From IMG/VR virus record IMGVR_UViG_2585427657_000001: 11,394 nucleotides of DNA; one strand, written 5' to 3'. This DNA is from a virus. Its lineage: Duplodnaviria > Heunggongvirae > Uroviricota > Caudoviricetes. Below the pieces are notes generated by a model. It did not search any database, was not told the origin of the DNA, and worked only from the letters and a program-made list of their open reading frames with translations. Position numbers and translations under genes: made by a program. Shown here one piece after another: positions 2,941 through 11,394 of the stretch (position 1 is its first letter; each line of letters opens with the position of its first letter).

Positions 2941-3240
2941 ATGAAACTTAAATATTCTGGCTTAACTGCCAGTGGCAACACTCACCCTAAATTTACGCGC
3001 GGCGATATTTACCGCGACCAGTACGGCGGCACGGTAATGATTAAGGGCGTGGCGGGACGGTGCGTAACTTACCGCCGTGAAGGTTACGAATATGATTGCG
3101 TGATGCCTGTTTATCAGTTCCGGCGTGATTTTTCTCTGGTACAGACCGCGCCGCATAACGTGCCCACCAGCAACGCCAGGGCACGGGCAAACATCCAGAA
3201 GCTGAAAACCATGATTAACGGATTCAGGGGTAAAAAATGA
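2941..3240 (+). CDS. Hypothetical protein (99 aa), translationally coupled to the primase
   Basis: GGAGAA Shine-Dalgarno before ATG 2941; stop overlaps the primase start (ATGA at 3237-3240). Confidence 0.55.
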   Translation: MKLKYSGLTASGNTHPKFTRGDIYRDQYGGTVMIKGVAGRCVTYRREGYEYDCVMPVYQFRRDFSLVQTAPHNVPTSNARARANIQKLKTMINGFRGKK

Positions 3241-4991
3241 AACTGGCACCGAACGTAAAACAGCAGTCACGCGGCATAAAACACAAAGGAACAGAAGTCA
3301 TTATTTTTGCGGGTAGTGATGCCTGGGCACACGCGAAACAATGGCAGGAACATGATGCGCGTATGGCCGGAGATAATGAGCCTCCTGTGTGGCTTGGGGA
3401 GCAGCAGTTATCAGAACTGGATAAGCTGCAAATTGTGCCGGAAGGCAGAAAATCCGTGCGCATATTCAGGGCCGGATATCTTGCGCCAGTAATGATAAAG
3501 GCGATTGGTCAGAAGCTGGCGGCGGCAGGCGTACAGGATGCAAATTTTTACCCTGATGGTATGCACGGTCAGAAGGTGGAGAACTGGCGCGAATATCTGG
3601 CCCGTGAGCGCCAGAATCTTTCTGATGGTCTGGTCATTGAGCTTCCGGTAAAGCAAAAGGCGCAACTTTCGCAGATGGCGGACAGTGAGCGCGCGCAGCT
3701 GCTTGCCGATCGCTTTGATGGCGTTTGCGTACATCCTGAAAGTGAAATCGTTCACGTATGGCGCGGCGGGGTATGGTGTCCGGTCAGCACAATGGAACTT
3801 AGCCGCGAAATGGTGGCGATCTATTCAGAGCACAGGGCCACTTTCAGCAAGCGCGTAATCAATAACGCCGTGGAAGCGTTAAAAGTTATTGCCGAACCAA
3901 TGGGCGAGCCGTCCGGCGATTTGCTGCCGTTCGCCAATGGTGCGCTTGACCTGAAAACGGGGGAATTTTCCCCGCACACGCCGGAGAACTGGATCACCAC
4001 GCACAACGGCATTGAGTACACGCCACCAGCACCAGGGGAGAACATCCGCGATAACGCGCCAAACTTTCATAAATGGCTTGAGCACGCAGCCGGAAAAGAC
4101 CCGCGCAAGATGATGCGTATATGTGCCGCGCTGTACATGATTATGGCGAACCGGTACGACTGGCAGATGTTTATTGAGGCCACCGGAGACGGCGGGAGCG
4201 GTAAAAGTACATTCACACACATAGCCAGCCTTCTGGCAGGGAAACAAAACACGGTAAGCGCTGAAATGACATCGCTTGATGATGCTGGTGGGCGTGCGCA
4301 GGTTGTCGGGAGTCGTCTTATCGTCCTGGCAGACCAGCCGAAATATACAGGCGAAGGAACGGGCATCAAGAAAATCACGGGCGGCGACCCCGTGGAAATT
4401 AACCCGAAATATGAAAAGCGTTTTACGGCGGTAATCAGGGCGGTGGTGCTGGCAACCAATAACAATCCGATGATATTCACCGAACGGGCCGGAGGTGTGG
4501 CACGTCGTCGGGTGATATTCCGGTTCGATAACATCGTAAGCGAGGCAGAAAAAGACAGGGAGCTACCGGAAAAGATCGCGGCTGAAATCCCTGTCATTAT
4601 CCGCCGCTTGCTGGCGAACTTTGCCGACCCTGAAAAGGCACGGGCTTTACTCATTGAACAGCGTGACGGTGATGAAGCACTGGCAATAAAGCAACAGACG
4701 GATCCGGTTATTGAGTTTTGCCAGTTCCTGAATTTTCTGGAGGAAGCACGCGGCCTGATGATGGGCGGCGGTGGCGATTCAGTGAAGTACACGACCAGAA
4801 ACAGCCTTTACCGCGTCTATCTGGCGTTTATGGCGTACGCAGGCAGGAGCAAACCGCTAAACGTAAATGACTTTGGCAAGGCTATGAAGCCAGCCGCGAA
4901 AGTTTACGGACATGAATATATTACGCGGAAAGTTAAAGGAGTAACGCAGACTAACGCAATAACAACAGACGATTGCGACGCGTTTTTATAA
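3237..4991 (+). CDS. Replication initiator: primase/helicase of the phage-plasmid P4 (alpha) / PICI Pri-Rep type
   Basis: 584-aa protein with Walker A P-loop GDGGSGKST and a following hydrophobic-Asp segment (SRLIVLADQP) typical of D5/P4-alpha-like primase-helicases. Sits between alpA and an iteron array as in satellite replication modules. Confidence 0.8.
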   Translation: MKLAPNVKQQSRGIKHKGTEVIIFAGSDAWAHAKQWQEHDARMAGDNEPPVWLGEQQLSELDKLQIVPEGRKSVRIFRAGYLAPVMIKAIGQKLAAAGVQDANFYPDGMHGQKVENWREYLARERQNLSDGLVIELPVKQKAQLSQMADSERAQLLADRFDGVCVHPESEIVHVWRGGVWCPVSTMELSREMVAIYSEHRATFSKRVINNAVEALKVIAEPMGEPSGDLLPFANGALDLKTGEFSPHTPENWITTHNGIEYTPPAPGENIRDNAPNFHKWLEHAAGKDPRKMMRICAALYMIMANRYDWQMFIEATGDGGSGKSTFTHIASLLAGKQNTVSAEMTSLDDAGGRAQVVGSRLIVLADQPKYTGEGTGIKKITGGDPVEINPKYEKRFTAVIRAVVLATNNNPMIFTERAGGVARRRVIFRFDNIVSEAEKDRELPEKIAAEIPVIIRRLLANFADPEKARALLIEQRDGDEALAIKQQTDPVIEFCQFLNFLEEARGLMMGGGGDSVKYTTRNSLYRVYLAFMAYAGRSKPLNVNDFGKAMKPAAKVYGHEYITRKVKGVTQTNAITTDDCDAFL

Positions 4992-6210: not shown

Positions 6211-6275
6211 AGCCGGAGCAATCCGGCTTTTTTAAAAAAAGCCCGATAAGGTCAGAGGTGGCTTATCGGGCTTTT
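6211..6275. terminator. Tandem terminators: a second copy of the AGCCGGAGCAATCCGGCT hairpin, then a hairpin flanked by an A-run and a T-run
   Basis: 6211-6233 is identical to the 6013-6035 hairpin plus T-run; 6234-6275 is AAAAAAA GCCCGATAAG ... CTTATCGGGC TTTT. Confidence 0.55.
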
Positions 6276-6352
6276 GCATATGAGGCTTTTTGGTGCACTG
6301 ACACACATGATCGGGATAATCATTTCATAATTTGCAACGCAACTCAACATCA

Positions 6353-6436: not shown

Positions 6437-6643
6437 ATGGCTGAAGAGAAAAAAGGCGGTGTTTCGGTGTACATAAGCCCCGACATCGTGAAGGCGCTCA
6501 AGGAACGCCACCAGCAGAACGTAAAAGCAGGCATTGCGGCAGGACTTGATCCGCTGGCGATGGTTGAGCCGTCAACAGGCTGGCAGGTACGCTCCTATTT
6601 ACGCGCGGCGCTGGGCATAAATCAGACTCATGGGGGTGAATAA
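6437..6643 (+). CDS. Hypothetical protein (68 aa), translationally coupled to the major capsid gene
   Basis: Good Shine-Dalgarno; TAATG stop/start overlap with the capsid gene at 6641-6645. N-terminal VSVYISPDIVKALKERH could be a ribbon-helix-helix motif (weak). Confidence 0.5.
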   Translation: MAEEKKGGVSVYISPDIVKALKERHQQNVKAGIAAGLDPLAMVEPSTGWQVRSYLRAALGINQTHGGE

Positions 6644-7698
6644 TGGCAGTCAAAGCAATGGCACTTAACACACACCAGCTTTTCGCGTACCTGAATCGCG
6701 AGGATATTGCGGAATTTAAATTTAGTCCGCTGTTTACCGCGCTGTTTTTCCCGAACGTGGCGACATTCAACACGCAAAACATCATGCTGGATACCCTGGA
6801 CATTGAAGAAGTCACCATGTCGGCGTTTTGTTCGCCTATGGTGGGTAGCCAGGTTCAGCGCGATAAAGGGTACGAAACCAGCACGATTAAACCTGGCTAC
6901 ATGAAGCCAAAGCACGAAATCGATCCAACGAAAACCATCATGCGCATGGCTGGAGAAGATCCGGCACAGCTTAACGACCCTACCTATCGCCGTATGCGCC
7001 TGATTACTGGCAATATGCGCCGCCAGATAAACGCCATAAAAGCGCGCGTGGAATGGCTGGCGGTAAATGCGGTAACGACCGGAAAAAACATCATTGAGGG
7101 CGAAGGCATAGAGCGCTATGAAATCGACTGGAAGATACCGGAAAAAAACATCATAGAGCAGGCCGACGGGAAAAAATGGTCAGAGCAGGACAAAGAAACC
7201 CACGATCCAATCTATGATATCGAACTATACGCCGATCAGGCTGGTTGCCCCGCAAACGTCATGATTATGGGCGTTGAGGTATGGCGAACGTTACGCAGCT
7301 TTAAAAAATTCCGTGAGCTGTACGATCTTTCCCGTGGTTCAGAGTCCGCCGCAGAGCTGGCCTGTAAAAACCTGGGCGAAGTGGTGAGCTTTAAAGGCTA
7401 TCTGGGCGATATTGCCCTTATCGTCTATTCCGGCAAATACACTGACAGCGACGGCACAGAAAAATATTTCCTTGATCCTGATTTGCTGGTCCTGGGCAAC
7501 ACCAACAACAAAGGGCTGGTGGCCTATGGTGCGATTATGGATCAGGAAGCGGTAAGAACAGGCGCAACGCAAAACATGTACTACCCGAAAAACTGGATTG
7601 AGGACGGCGATCCGGCGATTGAGTACGTGCAGACGCACAGCGCACCGCAGCCGGTTCCGGCAGATATTCGCAAATTTGTTACCGTCAAAATTGCTTAA
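6643..7698 (+). CDS. Major capsid protein, phage lambda gpE family
   Basis: 351 aa; multiple blocks match lambda gpE as recalled: FKFSPLFTALFF (lambda FKFDPLFLRLFF), KPGYMKPKHEIDP (TPGYVKPKHEVNP), DPTYRRMRLITGNMR (DPAYRRRRIIMQNMR), WSEQDKETHDPIYDIELYA (WSKRDKSTYDPTDDIEAYA), LGDIALIVYSGKY (YGDVAIVVYSGQY), YYPKNWIEDGDPA (RYPKNWVTTGDPA), C-terminal FVTVKIA (FVSVQLA). Confidence 0.9.
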   Translation: MAVKAMALNTHQLFAYLNREDIAEFKFSPLFTALFFPNVATFNTQNIMLDTLDIEEVTMSAFCSPMVGSQVQRDKGYETSTIKPGYMKPKHEIDPTKTIMRMAGEDPAQLNDPTYRRMRLITGNMRRQINAIKARVEWLAVNAVTTGKNIIEGEGIERYEIDWKIPEKNIIEQADGKKWSEQDKETHDPIYDIELYADQAGCPANVMIMGVEVWRTLRSFKKFRELYDLSRGSESAAELACKNLGEVVSFKGYLGDIALIVYSGKYTDSDGTEKYFLDPDLLVLGNTNNKGLVAYGAIMDQEAVRTGATQNMYYPKNWIEDGDPAIEYVQTHSAPQPVPADIRKFVTVKIA

Positions 7699-7709
7699 CG
7701 GGGGATTCT

Positions 7710-8045
7710 ATGGACACTCCATACATTGAGTTATTTGCAGGCAGTCAGCAGGTATCCACGACGCTGGTACATTTTGCCGCTGATGCTGGCGTTATTCAGG
7801 AATTTACCCCGCTGATGCTGGCGGACAATGGCGAGTTTAAGCCGTGGGATGGTCAGGAATCTGGCAAGGCTGTTTATCTGACTTCGTACCTCGTGGACAC
7901 GTCAAAGCAGAAATCAGCACAGTGTTACAAGACGGGGATATTCAATATTGCCGCCGTTAACTGGCCTGAGAGCGTCGACACCGATGCGAAAAAATGCGCC
8001 GCCTTTGCGGGTTCTGGCGTATCCGTTCAGCCGCTGGCCCGATAA
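7710..8045 (+). CDS. Head decoration protein, phage lambda gpD family
   Basis: 111 aa; TPLMLADNGEFKPWDG (lambda TPLMLDTSSRKLVAWDG), CYKTGIF...NWPES (FYKSGTF...LWPEA), KKCAAFAGSGVSV (KKRTAFAGTAISI). Size matches gpD (110 aa). Confidence 0.8.
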   Translation: MDTPYIELFAGSQQVSTTLVHFAADAGVIQEFTPLMLADNGEFKPWDGQESGKAVYLTSYLVDTSKQKSAQCYKTGIFNIAAVNWPESVDTDAKKCAAFAGSGVSVQPLAR

Positions 8046-8057
8046 GCAGGGGGAACG

Positions 8058-8471
8058 ATGGCAACGAATGAAAGCATCATGGCGCTACCGCTGGCGAGTA
8101 AATTTAAAGCCGAAGCGCGGGCAATGGCTGACAGAGGTTTATCAACCTACGAGGCCGTATATCAACTCAACAAACTGGAAGAGCAGGACAAGCCGCGCGC
8201 TGATGCGATTATGGCGCTTCATGAGCATAAAGACTATCAGCCGCTGTTGCGTGCAATGGCAAACGTGCCTTGTATCGATGTTGATACGGCTAAAAACATC
8301 CTGAACATGACCATAGAGCAGGAACGCCCGAAGGTTGCACCAGAGCTTACCGCAGCCTTTGAAAACTTTATGGACATGCACAGCCCACAAACCGTATCAG
8401 CTGGCATGGCATACGATGGCAGAAACCCAGGCGATGACGGCGACATCGATCGCATACTGAAAACCATCTGA
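8058..8471 (+). CDS. Hypothetical protein (137 aa), last gene of the capsid operon, directly upstream of cos
   Basis: ORF with AGGGGGA upstream, followed by a terminator at 8478-8500. No motif recognised; position suggests a packaging or morphogenesis accessory role. Confidence 0.55.
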   Translation: MATNESIMALPLASKFKAEARAMADRGLSTYEAVYQLNKLEEQDKPRADAIMALHEHKDYQPLLRAMANVPCIDVDTAKNILNMTIEQERPKVAPELTAAFENFMDMHSPQTVSAGMAYDGRNPGDDGDIDRILKTI

Positions 8472-8477
8472 GACAAG

Positions 8478-8500
8478 GCCGGAGAAATCCGGCTTTTTTT
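8478..8500 (+). terminator. Rho-independent terminator after the capsid operon
   Basis: Stem GCCGGA / TCCGGC with GAAA loop and a 7-T run; variant of the hairpin at 6013-6035 and 6211-6233. Confidence 0.6.
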
Positions 8501-8501
8501 A

Positions 8502-8564
8502 GGGTCCTTCCCGGAATATGGACCCGTTACGGGGCGGCGACCTCGCGGTTTTTCGCTATTTATG
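8502..8564 (+). other. cos site 1: palindrome GGGTCC-N12-GGACCC, then lambda-type cosN (GGGCGGCGACCT at 8532-8543) and lambda-like proximal flank
   Basis: Sequence GTTACG GGGCGGCGACCT CGCGGTTTTTCGCTATTTATGA matches the lambda cohesive-end region as recalled (GTTACG GGGCGGCGACCT CGCGGGTTTTCGCTATTTATGAAAATTTTCCGG). No lambda-like R-site motifs are recognisable downstream. Confidence 0.7.
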
Positions 8565-8637
8565 AGCTTTTTCAGGGGGGTGGTGGTGGTTTTGTTGTTT
8601 GCTCTATCTTTATGAATGAAAAGGGAAAGATGCAAAC

Positions 8638-8675
8638 AATACACCAACCTGAAGCAGTAATTAAGTTGGTGTATT
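8638..8675. promoter_or_regulatory. Perfect 11-bp inverted repeat AATACACCAAC / GTTGGTGTATT (16-nt spacer) between cosN and the terS start; candidate cosB recognition element or operator
   Basis: Seen directly: 8638-8648 and 8665-8675 are exact reverse complements, ending 1 nt before ATG 8677. Confidence 0.4.
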
Positions 8676-8676
8676 A

Positions 8677-9219
8677 ATGAAATCGCACCTGATGAACAAA
8701 AAAAACATGGCGAAAAGCTGCCGTGTAAGTGCGACAGCGTTCGACAAGTGGGGAGTGACTCCCGTTGAACGTAAAGGCCGTGAGGCGTTTTACGATGTTG
8801 CCAGCGTGATAGACAATAGGGTTAACAATGCAATTAGCCAGCTTACAAACGACAAAGGCGATATTGATGATGATGAACTCTTACGAGTCAGGATCAGATT
8901 ACTGACAGCACAGGCGGAGGCGCAGGAACTTAAAAACGAGCGCGATCGCGGTGACGTGATTGATACTGAGTTTTGCCTGTACGCGCTTTCAAAGCTGGCG
9001 AGTCAGATTTCATCAATCATGGACAGCCTCCCGCTTACTATGCAAAGGAGCTTCCCACAGATTACCCCCGCCATGCTGGATAGGCTTAAAAGGGAAGTGG
9101 TTAAAGCCTGTAATGCCAGTGCCAGAGTTGCCGACAACCTCCCACAGATACTGGCTGATTACTTGAAAGAAACAACCGGAAACGTACCGGAAAAGTTGCT
9201 ACAGAAGAAAGGCGAGTAA
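8677..9219 (+). CDS. Small terminase subunit, lambda Nu1 family (start may be ATG 8692, giving MNKK...)
   Basis: LTAQAEAQELKNERDRGDVIDTEFCLYALSKLASQISSIMDSLPLTMQRSFPQI matches lambda Nu1 LTRAQADAQELKNARDSAEVVETAFCTFVLSRIAGEIASILDGLPLSVQRRFPEL; C-terminal LADYLKETTG matches LLSEYIEQSG; N-terminal MNKK matches Nu1 MEVNKK. Gene sits immediately downstream of a cosN, as in lambda. Confidence 0.85.
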   Translation: MKSHLMNKKNMAKSCRVSATAFDKWGVTPVERKGREAFYDVASVIDNRVNNAISQLTNDKGDIDDDELLRVRIRLLTAQAEAQELKNERDRGDVIDTEFCLYALSKLASQISSIMDSLPLTMQRSFPQITPAMLDRLKREVVKACNASARVADNLPQILADYLKETTGNVPEKLLQKKGE

Positions 9220-9239
9220 CAGACGCGCAATTATTGAAC

Positions 9240-9441
9240 AAAACTGAGAAACGACATGAAAGCGTCATAAATCGCCATTTTAGATGATTACCGTGTCGTT
9301 TCTTTTTATTGTGTATCTATTTAAAAACAAATAGTTATGTTCGAGAAGTACCGACATGCTTTTTCCAGAAAAATTTTCATAAACAGATAAAACCCGCGAG
9401 GTCGCCGCCCCGTAACGGGTCCATAATTCCAGGAAGGACCC
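9240..9441 (-). other. cos site 2 (inverted): lambda-type cosN (minus strand of 9399-9410) with lambda-like cosB (R3/I1/R2/R1-like segments) and upstream GGGTCC/GGACCC palindrome
   Basis: Minus strand reads GGGTCCTTCCTGGAATTATGGACCC GTTACG GGGCGGCGACCT CGCGGGTTTTATCTGTTTATGAAAATTTTTCTGG ...ACTTCTCGAACATAACTATTTGTTTTTAAATAGATACAC...AAAGAAACGACACGG...CATGTCGTTTCTCAG, which parallels the recalled lambda left end (TTCTTCGTCATAACTTAATGTTTTTATTTAAAATACC, AAAGGAAACGACAGG, CTGTCGTTTCCTTTCTC). Confidence 0.65.
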
Positions 9442-9475
9442 GACGACACCAGACAATCAGAACGATGGGTGCACA

Positions 9476-9757
9476 ATGACAGAAGCCGAAATACTGGGAT
9501 TAATCCGCCGTGCTGGTGGAATCAGCCAGCAGACTGACGAACAGGCCACGCAGCCGGACAGCGTGACAGCCGAAAATTATGCGCGTGTTGTTGCTGAGGT
9601 GATGCGCCGTGATGGTATCCAGCTTAATGATGTGGATATGCGCAACATACGGATCCGCGTTCTTGAAATGCTGGCCTACAATCGCCGCGTGGCACTGTAT
9701 CGGGAAACGGAGAAAATTACATACCACTGGAAGAAGCCGGAGCGGTTGCGGCGGTAA
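9476..9757 (+). CDS. Hypothetical protein (93 aa)
   Basis: ORF between cos 2 and the att repeats with protein-like composition. Weak ribosome-binding site; no homology recognised. Confidence 0.4.
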   Translation: MTEAEILGLIRRAGGISQQTDEQATQPDSVTAENYARVVAEVMRRDGIQLNDVDMRNIRIRVLEMLAYNRRVALYRETEKITYHWKKPERLRR

Positions 9758-9933: not shown

Positions 9934-11394
9934 TTATTCATCTTTCGGTGCAGAATGCTGGCGACCAAAAATCACTTCCATCCGCGCACCGCCCAGCATG
10001 CTCTCTCCGGCGACGATTTTACCCTCATATTGCTCGGTGATTTCGCGGGCTACCGCCAGCCCCACACCTTGCCCAGGGCGTAAAGTATCAACCCGTTGAC
10101 CACGGTCGAAAATGACCTCTCGCTTGCTTAATGGAATACCGGGGCCATCATCCTCGACCACAATATAGAGATGCTCGTCGGTTTGCCTTGCAGAAATTTC
10201 GACAAATTCGAGGCAATATTTACAGGCATTATCCAGCACATTACCCATCACCTCGACAAAATCGTTCTGCTCACCAACAAAGCTGATCTCTGGCGAAATA
10301 TCGAGAGAGATATTGACCCCTTTGCGTTGATACACTTTGTTCAGCGCCGAGGTGAGATTGTCCAACAGTGGGGCGACCGGATGCAGCTCGCGGCTAAGCA
10401 ATGTCCCGCCGCGCATACTGGCACGATGCAGGTAGTAGCCAATTTGCTGTGAAATGCGGCTGATTTGCTCCAGCATTACCGGCTCAGCATCACTGACGCT
10501 CATCTTCTCACTACGCAGAGAACGCAGCGTACTTTGCAGCACCGCCAGTGGCGTTTTCAGACTATGGGTCAGGTCGGTGAGCGTCGTACGATATTTGTCG
10601 TAACGTTCGCGTTCACTTTTTAACAGTCGGTTCAGGTTTCGTACCAGACTGGTCAGTTCTCGCGTTGTGGCTGGATTGAGCAATTCACGGTTATGTTCTT
10701 CCAGTTCGCGGACTTCTTTTGCCAGGGCTTCGATGGGGCGTAAACTCCACCAGGCGGCGACCCACAGCAGCGGGATCACTAACAGCAGATTGGCTGAGAG
10801 CACATAGATAAACCAGCTCCAGACCATATAGGAACTTTTTAGCTCCACCGGAATGGTATCCACCACCACAATGGTTAACTTTGGCATCCGCGATGTTGCC
10901 GGGTAGACGTTTACCGCCACCGAGTGGGTCATCTCCGCGTCGTCATCATCTTCCCGCACTTCCTGCAACTGTTGCTGTATCGAATGATCTCCACTCAGCA
11001 AGAGGCTGGTATCGTTAACATCCGCTTCAATTTCATGAAAACCATTCGATTTCAGCCAGTCAGGCTGGATCATCTTCATCAGCCAGGGCACGTCACGTTG
11101 CGCCCATAAAAGCTGCCCGTTCTCATCATAAATTAGTGTCATCGTGGGGCTTTGCTTGTCGATATTTTCGGGTAACTCGACATGCAACTTATTGTTTTCC
11201 CACTTCGCAAGGGTATAGAACAGATTGCTCTCGCCACGTAACAGCCGAAACGTGGTTTTATCGAAACTGACGCTATAACCGATCAGCGCAACCATTCCGT
11301 AGGCAAGCGAAAGCACCAATACTACTGCTGCCGTTGCTAACAGAAAACGTACCCGCAGCGAGAGCGGGAAAAAAAGATGCAGTAATTTTTTCAT
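9934..11394 (-). CDS. phoQ: Sensor histidine kinase PhoQ (PhoP/PhoQ two-component system), complete
   Basis: 486-aa product recognised as E. coli-type PhoQ ([68 protein letters not shown]...; periplasmic acidic patch EDDDDAEM; H-box [14 protein letters not shown]; G-box DDGPGI). Start codon is the last three bases of the window; phoP would lie beyond the right edge. Confidence 0.97.

Follow-up and report, generated by a model that had tools for sequence, protein, structure and literature searches.

An 11,394-nt stretch of viral DNA (IMG/VR record IMGVR_UViG_2585427657_000001; the whole of it is referred to below as the window) was analysed with respect to a perfect inverted repeat located between the packaging site cos1 and terS, the gene for a small terminase subunit of the Nu1 family. 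The window is a phage-inducible chromosomal island (PICI-type satellite) adjoining phoQ (9934-11394, minus strand). We propose, with a probability of about 0.6, that cos1 has a tripartite, N15/Monarch-like cosB read by the island's own TerS, and that the two arms of the repeat are its equivalents of R2 and R1. The principal determinant, of the R3 type, would be a block located closer to cosN (block A); the left arm of the repeat would provide a conserved second site, and the right arm a third one under weak constraint. The element would then be a λ/N15-type cosB residing in a satellite island, with the palindrome itself not being the conserved unit. The repeat is an expected feature of a λ-like cosB, and no new principle is involved.

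Anatomy and conservation of the repeat

The two arms of the repeat, AATACACCAAC and GTTGGTGTATT, are 11 nt long each, 100% complementary and 16 nt apart, exactly as described in the original prediction, which was made without database searches. The repeat was also correctly said to abut the start of the Nu1-like gene: its right arm stops at 8675, 1 nt short of the terS ATG at 8677 (bp 146 counted from 8532). Position 8692, to which the prediction had extended the element, is that of a second in-frame ATG lying outside the repeat. Translation from this second ATG was suggested by alignments with phage TerS proteins, which begin at residue 6, and was rejected: ATG 8677 is the real start of terS, because this codon and the upstream Shine-Dalgarno sequence are kept across genera, in which M6 is replaced by leucine. 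The possibility that the repeat is an intrinsic terminator was rejected as well, as it is not followed by a T-run. A search without mismatch revealed no further exact copy of the repeat motif elsewhere in the window. When mononucleotide-shuffled 11.4-kb windows were searched for perfect inverted repeats with arms of 11 nt or more and loops of 3-40 nt, 0.077 were found per window, which corresponds to approximately 0.001 per 145-bp cosN-to-ATG interval (the real window contains three such loci). Because of this low expectation, the repeat is no chance feature.

Conservation of the cos-terS intergenic region was assessed in an alignment of 18 loci. Twelve of them belong to the Escherichia lineage (the window, L002-L005, L012 and L045-L050), while the others come from islands of Enterobacter, an Enterobacteriaceae metagenome, Citrobacter, Kosakonia and Superficieibacter, with TerS proteins 54-59% identical. 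A search for related loci with the single TerS protein found nothing; that with the TerS alignment contributed Kosakonia, Superficieibacter and two distant loci, and everything else it matched was a λ-type (~35%) terS gene of a prophage or an assembly contig. Apart from cosQ and cosN, the otherwise diverged DNA of five genera contains two conserved blocks, A and B. Block A, with the consensus TGGTGGTGGT(T/G)TTGTTGTT, is the most conserved non-coding block, having 14 of 19 columns invariant (these and the following counts refer to 11 islands from three genera). It is present also in Kosakonia, Superficieibacter and the loci whose TerS is 42% identical (L015 and L016), the latter two having block A only. 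Block B, which includes the left arm (consensus CAATACACC(A/C)AC), is invariant in 7 of 13 columns, and two more columns of the 11-nt arm are conserved in at least 90%. Elsewhere, invariant columns amount to 7/36 in the spacer between the blocks, 1/16 in the loop and 0/11 in the right arm. The start-to-start distance from block A to block B is 56 nt in 18/18 loci, and that from block B to the ATG varies between 39 and 44 nt. Both the concentration of conservation in block A and the left arm, at this degree of TerS divergence, and the fixed A-B spacing next to a variable B-ATG distance argue for the proposed cosB.

The right arm behaves differently. Outside Escherichia its place is occupied by CAGAGGTnAAAATG, an ordinary ribosome-binding site that does not pair with the left arm beyond noise. 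Other E. coli alleles bear GTGGGGGTATT, GTGGGGATATT, GTTGTGGTATC, GTTGGGATATT or GTAGATGTATT, always in the same place, with 7-9 of 11 positions complementary to an essentially unchanged left arm. Among 10 E. coli alleles we found no compensatory change, and 6 of the 11 pairs were simply broken. Overall, the right arm is degenerate in ~39% of E. coli alleles. Since it has no invariant column and is degenerate or absent in relatives, with the left arm showing no compensation, the palindrome as such is probably not the functional unit. Block A (8581-8599), to which the original prediction did not draw attention, is more likely to be the main determinant. What had been predicted of the repeat as a cosB element would hold for the left arm, conserved in Escherichia, Enterobacter, Citrobacter, Kosakonia and Superficieibacter, rather than for the palindrome, whose right arm looks like a dispensable or degenerating member of the trio. 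In the allele group of the window, this arm still mirrors the left one perfectly, as in the R2/R1 pair of λ.

Of 5426 complete E. coli genomes, 766 carry the 65-nt region surrounding the repeat, O157:H7, Nissle 1917 and ATCC 25922 being among them; 110 carriers are identical to the window, 361 fall in the 95-99% identity band and 295 have diverged alleles. All 18 rows sampled from the 95-99% band had three mismatches (95.4%; O157:H7, O55:H7 and unserotyped strains). In the one allele of this band that was inspected, L005, the three mismatches lie outside the arms, and the repeat is therefore probably perfect across the band. By this estimate 471 of the 766 carriers (110 + 361) keep it perfect, in a sampling dominated by O157:H7.

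A further observation concerns the variable positions of the two blocks. In the main E. coli alleles, TerS residues 18-19 are S-A, with T at 8590 (GGTTTTG) and A at 8646 (ACCAAC); in L012 and the other genera these residues are G-V or G-L, with G in block A (GGTGTTG) and C in block B (ACCCAC). As this concerted change may be a single evolutionary event, it is only weak evidence of a possible co-evolution of the protein and its sites.

Mapped R sites of phages and the candidate reader protein

The repeat lies between cosN and the terS ATG, as expected for a λ-type tripartite cosB, and the whole region occupies the same place as in λ, to the right of an identical cosN and upstream of a Nu1-family terS. 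The original prediction that the repeat sits at the place of the λ R sites was borne out: its arms span bp 107-117 and 134-144 from the left cohesive end, compared to bp 109-124 and 151-166 for λ R2 and R1, which together form a perfect 16-bp inverted repeat (PMC9026076). The position near this pair, itself a perfect inverted repeat, is one of the arguments for our proposal. Block A (bp 50-68), by both position and conservation, is found at the R3 place of a λ-type cosB (~48-65 bp from the left cohesive end; λ R3 itself covers bp 50-65), and block B (bp 105-117) is inverted and corresponds in position to λ R2. The candidate third site of the island is direct and, like λ R1, forms a perfect inverted repeat with the second, and the spacer between the first and the second is A/T-rich in both systems (69% A+T in the window). 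The systems differ in the distance between the R3 and R2 centres (~52 bp in the island, 59 bp in λ) and in the location of the R1-equivalent, which abuts the start codon in the island, whereas λ R1 lies 25 bp upstream of it. The counterpart of I1, the IHF site between R3 and R2, is weak in the window. Other genera have AATCAGTAGGATA, AATCATATATTTA or AATCATACTGATA at this place, with 1-2 mismatches to the IHF consensus, WATCAANNNNTTR, so that positions 8605-8617 may be regarded as a weak candidate for I1.

The R-like sequence of the island is not related to the λ R core, CGTTTCC. To this extent the prediction of an element unlike the λ R motif was right; however, the arms match the R3 site of phage N15 at 9 and 8 of 11 positions. 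N15 R3, GAGGTTGTTGTT, was mapped genetically to bp 48-59, and scrambling of GTTGTT at bp 54-59 decreased the phage yield ~100-fold; this phage has one essential R3 and a non-essential inverted site, rR2 (PMC4669245). Block A contains GTTGTTGTT, which is akin to N15 R3. When the cosN-to-ATG interval was scanned with the N15 R3 core, GGTTGTTGTTT, at a threshold of at least 8 of 11 matches, six overlapping matches were obtained (0.8 expected), all in three sites: block A (plus strand, 9/11), the reverse complement of the left arm, GGTTGGTGTAT (minus strand, 9/11), and the right arm, AGTTGGTGTAT (plus strand, 8/11). Restriction of the matches to these three sites argues for the proposed cosB, and their orientation (+, -, +) is that of λ R3, R2 and R1. 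The same comparison supports the hypothesis, and it is put forward as such, that block B repeats block A in inverted orientation. N15-type R sites in the layout R3-I1-R2-R1 were described in the Monarch group of N15-like prophages (Feiss et al. 2015, PMC4669245), which, compared by its description only, would be the closest published analogue. N15 and Monarch are a phage and prophages, respectively, and the island is a roughly 10-kb satellite.

The product of terS is a 180-amino-acid (aa) small terminase subunit, assigned by sequence to the Nu1 family and predicted to have an N15-type winged-helix DNA-binding domain. It is colinear with λ Nu1 (35% identity over residues 6-166, E = 2e-34), and its closest phage relative is N15 gp1 (46% identity). 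Conservation within the family is highest in residues 1-45; the core of the recognition helix, AFDKWGV, and the wing, PVE(R/K)xGRE, are common to the island TerS and N15 gp1 and unlike the λ sequence RTIQNWQE, which is consistent with the reading of N15-like sites. The recognition helices, SATAFDKWGV in the island protein and SVQAFDKWGV in N15, differ in two residues. A search of PDB with the single TerS sequence found no terminase; with the family profile, the top match was weak (E = 0.005) and corresponded to the λ TerS chain of 6HN7, the RppC-TerS complex. An AlphaFold2 model of TerS based on an 11-sequence alignment was judged unusable (predicted local distance difference test score 54.6). 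In the C-terminal region of TerS, the λ-like pattern LPL..QR.FP....L.. ...P..L..Y is retained. Because the large subunit, TerL, is bound by the C-terminal 30-40 residues of λ TerS (PMC9026076), recruitment of the helper TerL by the island protein seems plausible.

On these grounds we infer the following mechanism. Rightward from cosN, the proposed layout comprises block A (R3), an A/T-rich spacer with the weak IHF-like site, the inverted left arm (R2), the direct right arm (R1) and terS. The N15-type winged-helix domain of the island TerS would bind the GGTTG(G/T)TGT-like sites, with R3 and R2 linked over a DNA bend by a dimer of TerS, as in the λ model. The λ-like C-terminal half of TerS would then recruit the helper TerL, leading to nicking of cosN, and the island DNA would be packaged in preference to that of the helper.

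cosB in phages and related islands, and alternative explanations

The original prediction regarded the repeat as a candidate element of a private cosB that could set island-specific terminase recognition. In INPHARED, matches of cos1 to the cos regions of λ-like phages cover positions 8502-8577 of the window, including the cosQ heptamer (8502-8508), and the DNA similarity ends at ~8577, roughly 45 bp after cosN; it is thus restricted to cosQ and cosN, and no phage record in INPHARED shares the cos1 cosB. The situation of cos2, a second, inverted cosQ-cosN copy (a 56-nt inverted repeat with 8517-8572, 88% complementary), is different. Its cosB (in the region 9230-9445) contains I1-like ACATAACTATTTGTTTTTAAATAGATAC, R2-like AAAGAAACGACACGG and R1-like CATGTCGTTTCTCAG elements, and, unlike cos1, it matches λ-like phages through the I1- and R2-like region with 74-84% identity. 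This difference between the two cos sites also argues for a cos1 cosB belonging to the island. Privacy was therefore supported as far as the DNA is concerned, by the end of phage similarity, the presence of an island-borne Nu1-family TerS downstream and the conservation of the left arm as one of the two blocks; the specificity itself is not fully private, given the N15/Monarch-type recognition helix and R-like motif. As a separate observation, cos2 points into the 3' end of terS.

The island of E. coli 042 (L044) is 93-94% identical to the window on both flanks (capsid E, decoration protein and flanking DNA), and in place of window positions 8574-9363 it has, at L044 2675-3336, a different cosB and a 144-aa RppA-like gene, whose product bears the residues R21, T22, T23, R25, W27 and K29, as in RppA. 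The breakpoint of the swap lies at ~bp 42 after cosN. Because the 042 island differs in both cosB and the reader protein between near-identical flanks, we take the two to be exchanged as one cassette. Such an exchange would be expected if cosB and its reader constituted a specificity pair, as with Rpp and its cos1, and it therefore argues for our proposal. So does the precedent that the Rpp-type cos1 cosB was shown experimentally to carry the island packaging specificity (PMC6739421). The swapped cassette is flanked by the two inverted cosQ-cosN copies, and since these copies bound it, recombination at cos is suggested as the way of the exchange.

In comparison with cos1 of the EcCICFT073-type PICIs bearing Rpp (Fillol-Salom et al. 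2019, PMC6739421; PMC9026076), the backbone, cosQ and cosN are the same, there are two cos sites in both, and in both an island-specific cosB lies directly upstream of an island-encoded specificity protein. The protein is different: the neighbour of cos in the window is a 180-aa Nu1-family TerS with a C-terminal region of the TerL-binding type, rather than an Rpp of 139-154 aa, which defines the Rpp type (144 aa in E. coli 042), and BLASTP revealed no similarity between the island TerS and the 042 Rpp (E = 1.4). The Rpp-type cosB was proposed to have a single R site; the island described here would have two or three. A (GGT)n/(ACC)n motif is found at the R3 position in both types, on opposite strands. 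In the TerS type it is (GGT)4 of the top strand (window 8579-8590, bp 48-59), and in the Rpp type (L044 2687-2695) it is ACCACCACC at bp 55-63, the core of R3-PICI proposed by Murialdo and Feiss (2022, PMC9026076). There is also a likeness between the left arm, ACACCAACC, and the DNA around the Rpp-type motif, GTGACACCACCACC.

Several findings weigh against the tripartite cosB. Measured between their centres, the arms are separated by 27 bp, compared to 42 bp for R2 and R1 of λ. Block A resembles the arms only modestly (9-11/13), and in most loci this likeness is non-significant relative to shuffles of the G/T-rich region. At the IHF-like position, the 13-mer of the window, ATTCATAAAGATA, has 3 mismatches by eye, falling outside the cut-off of at most 2. 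In N15 itself, R3 is 9 bp closer to cosN than the best R3-like match within block A, and spacing between cosN and R3 is critical in λ. Over the full N15 R3 this displaced match scores 9/12 in the window (10/12 in other genera), and the equidistant position gives 7/12 (by eye). Moreover, the 2018 survey saw no mobilisation, by resident prophages, of the two TerS-encoding islands of E. coli that it had marked (PMC6092414). Finally, the right arm varies whereas the TerS DNA-binding domain does not, and for this reason the arm may not be a TerS site at all.

This last point leads to the possibility that the left arm functions alone, as a single inverted accessory R site similar to N15 rR2 (PMC4669245), the right arm being an accident or a decayed R1 retained only as part of the ribosome-binding region. 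The asymmetric conservation of the arms, the drift of the right arm in relatives toward G-rich, Shine-Dalgarno-like sequences (GTGGGGG, GAGGT), the N15 precedent of an essential R3 with a dispensable inverted site, and the loci L015 and L016 with block A only would fit such an arrangement. We nevertheless consider it rather improbable, as a complete 11/11 match of the arms has the low chance expectation given above, all E. coli alleles retain 7-9/11 complementarity at exactly the same place, suggesting that the repeat is ancestral rather than accidental, and a perfect repeat is kept by the estimated 471 of 766 carriers, O157:H7-dominated as this sampling is.

Slightly less improbable, though still unlikely, is an effect at the level of mRNA, where a hairpin in the terS leader would bury the weak Shine-Dalgarno sequence GGUG, end 1 nt before the AUG and throttle or gate TerS synthesis. 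It was already suspected in the original prediction, and for the allele group of the window RNA folding agreed with it: the right arm overlaps the ribosome-binding region, and the predicted hairpin of -14.5 kcal/mol is more stable than dinucleotide shuffles (z = -3.5; -2.8 in the O157 allele). However, such stability is found only in the window and O157 alleles. No hairpin is predicted for the E. coli alleles LH50c and 23CRST050 (z = +1.1 and +1.6), partial pairings in A5 and L012 are weaker and non-significant (z = -0.3 and -1.5), and in other genera no predicted hairpin uses the two arms. The broken, uncompensated pairs described above amount to a lack of covariation, an Rfam scan of 8400-9500 gave nothing near the threshold, no promoter-like site was found upstream of terS in a promoter scan, and preservation of the left arm where the right arm is not kept is left unexplained by a hairpin. 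Such a structure could possibly coexist with the DNA-site role of the repeat as a secondary effect.

A very unlikely explanation is that of an operator for a dimeric transcription factor, e.g. an island regulator encoded upstream and controlling terS transcription. A perfect palindrome directly upstream of a gene would be in line with this, as would the gene for an AlpA-like helix-turn-helix protein that immediately precedes cos in some related islands. On the other hand, no sigma-70-like promoter was found in 8380-9400 (the only terminator-like match in the promoter and terminator scan of this region was the cosN sequence itself), and half-sites 27 bp apart centre to centre would be unusual for a helix-turn-helix dimer. 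Perfection of the repeat is also independent of the type of the upstream gene: L047 and L049 share the hypothetical gene of the window and have a degenerate right arm, and other genera keep the AlpA-like gene but not the palindrome.

The island and its significance

Features of the window are listed in Table 1. Closely related islands are found in other E. coli genomes: that of Nissle 1917, located at a tRNA-Pro gene by yejM, is 99.5% identical to the window, those of ATCC 25922 and other strains are as close, and O157:H7 has a similar island adjoining phoQ, with 96.8% identity over a 0.9-kb cos-terS query. Some E. coli PICIs were reported to encode TerS in the 2018 survey (PMC6092414).

Table 1. 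Coordinates of the candidate cosB, the two cos sites and the island genes in the window
Feature	Position in window	Strand	bp from left cohesive end	Basis or remark
cosQ-like heptamer GGGTCCT of cos1	8502-8508	+		read from sequence; kept in all related islands
cosN GGGCGGCGACCT	8532-8543	+	8532 = bp 1	identical to λ
Block A TGGTGGTGGTTTTGTTGTT, candidate R3-equivalent	8581-8599	+	50-68	conservation and N15 R3 likeness
Weak IHF-like site, candidate I1	8605-8617	-		A/T-rich spacer between blocks A and B
Block B CAATACACCAAC, includes left arm, candidate R2-equivalent	8636-8648	-	105-117	inverted relative to block A
Left arm AATACACCAAC	8638-8648		107-117	repeat search
Right arm GTTGGTGTATT, candidate R1-equivalent	8665-8675	+	134-144	overlaps weak terS Shine-Dalgarno GGTG
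terS, 180-aa Phage_Nu1-family protein	8677-9219	+		Pfam Phage_Nu1, E = 2.3e-23
cos2, second, inverted cosQ-cosN copy	9370-9445	-		cosB ~9290-9370, minus strand, λ-like
D5-type primase	3237-4991
λ-E-type major capsid protein	6643-7698
Head-decoration protein	7710-8045
137-aa protein	8058-8471

A hairpin resembling a terminator, GCCGGAGAAATCCGGC with T7 behind it, directly follows the open reading frame (ORF) for the 137-aa protein at 8478-8500, shortly before cosQ. It did not appear in the output of the terminator scan; with this hairpin in place, transcription of terS would need read-through or an unrecognised promoter. The other inverted-repeat loci of the window, 6237-6279 and 6845-6900, are a perfect palindrome with 14-nt arms, intergenic and upstream of a 68-aa ORF and the capsid gene, and an 11-nt perfect inverted pair within the capsid gene. 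In the Enterobacter and Enterobacteriaceae islands L006-L009, the island terS is followed by a truncated Phage_cap_E gene and then a Packaging_FI gene. Their insertion site is apparently within the capsid gene of a helper prophage, in the helper-embedded PICI configuration of PMC10111431.

A more far-reaching and, in our opinion, doubtful picture, less probable than the function of the left arm alone, would combine several of these observations. TerS- and Rpp-type islands would carry interchangeable cassettes of cosB and reader between the inverted cosQ-cosN copies, the same 11 bp would serve as both a TerS site and a hairpin brake, and the strand flip at R3 would record the origin of the site types. 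If this were true, an R1-equivalent placed over the terS ribosome-binding site would couple terminase dosage to packaging, and the (GGT)n/(ACC)n flip would record that the Rpp-type site arose from the TerS-type site, or the reverse.

PICI satellites are carriers of virulence and defence genes among enterobacteria, and detailed knowledge of how their DNA is packaged in place of that of the helper phage is available only for the Rpp mechanism; the literature searched yielded no study of the packaging specificity or cosB of TerS-type islands. Block A and the two arms of the repeat are concrete, mutable candidates for such specificity. The predicted N15/Monarch-type specificity suggests which helpers could mobilise TerS-type islands, and the proposed cosB bears on the question raised by Murialdo and Feiss of how many R sites are needed by the cosB of a satellite.

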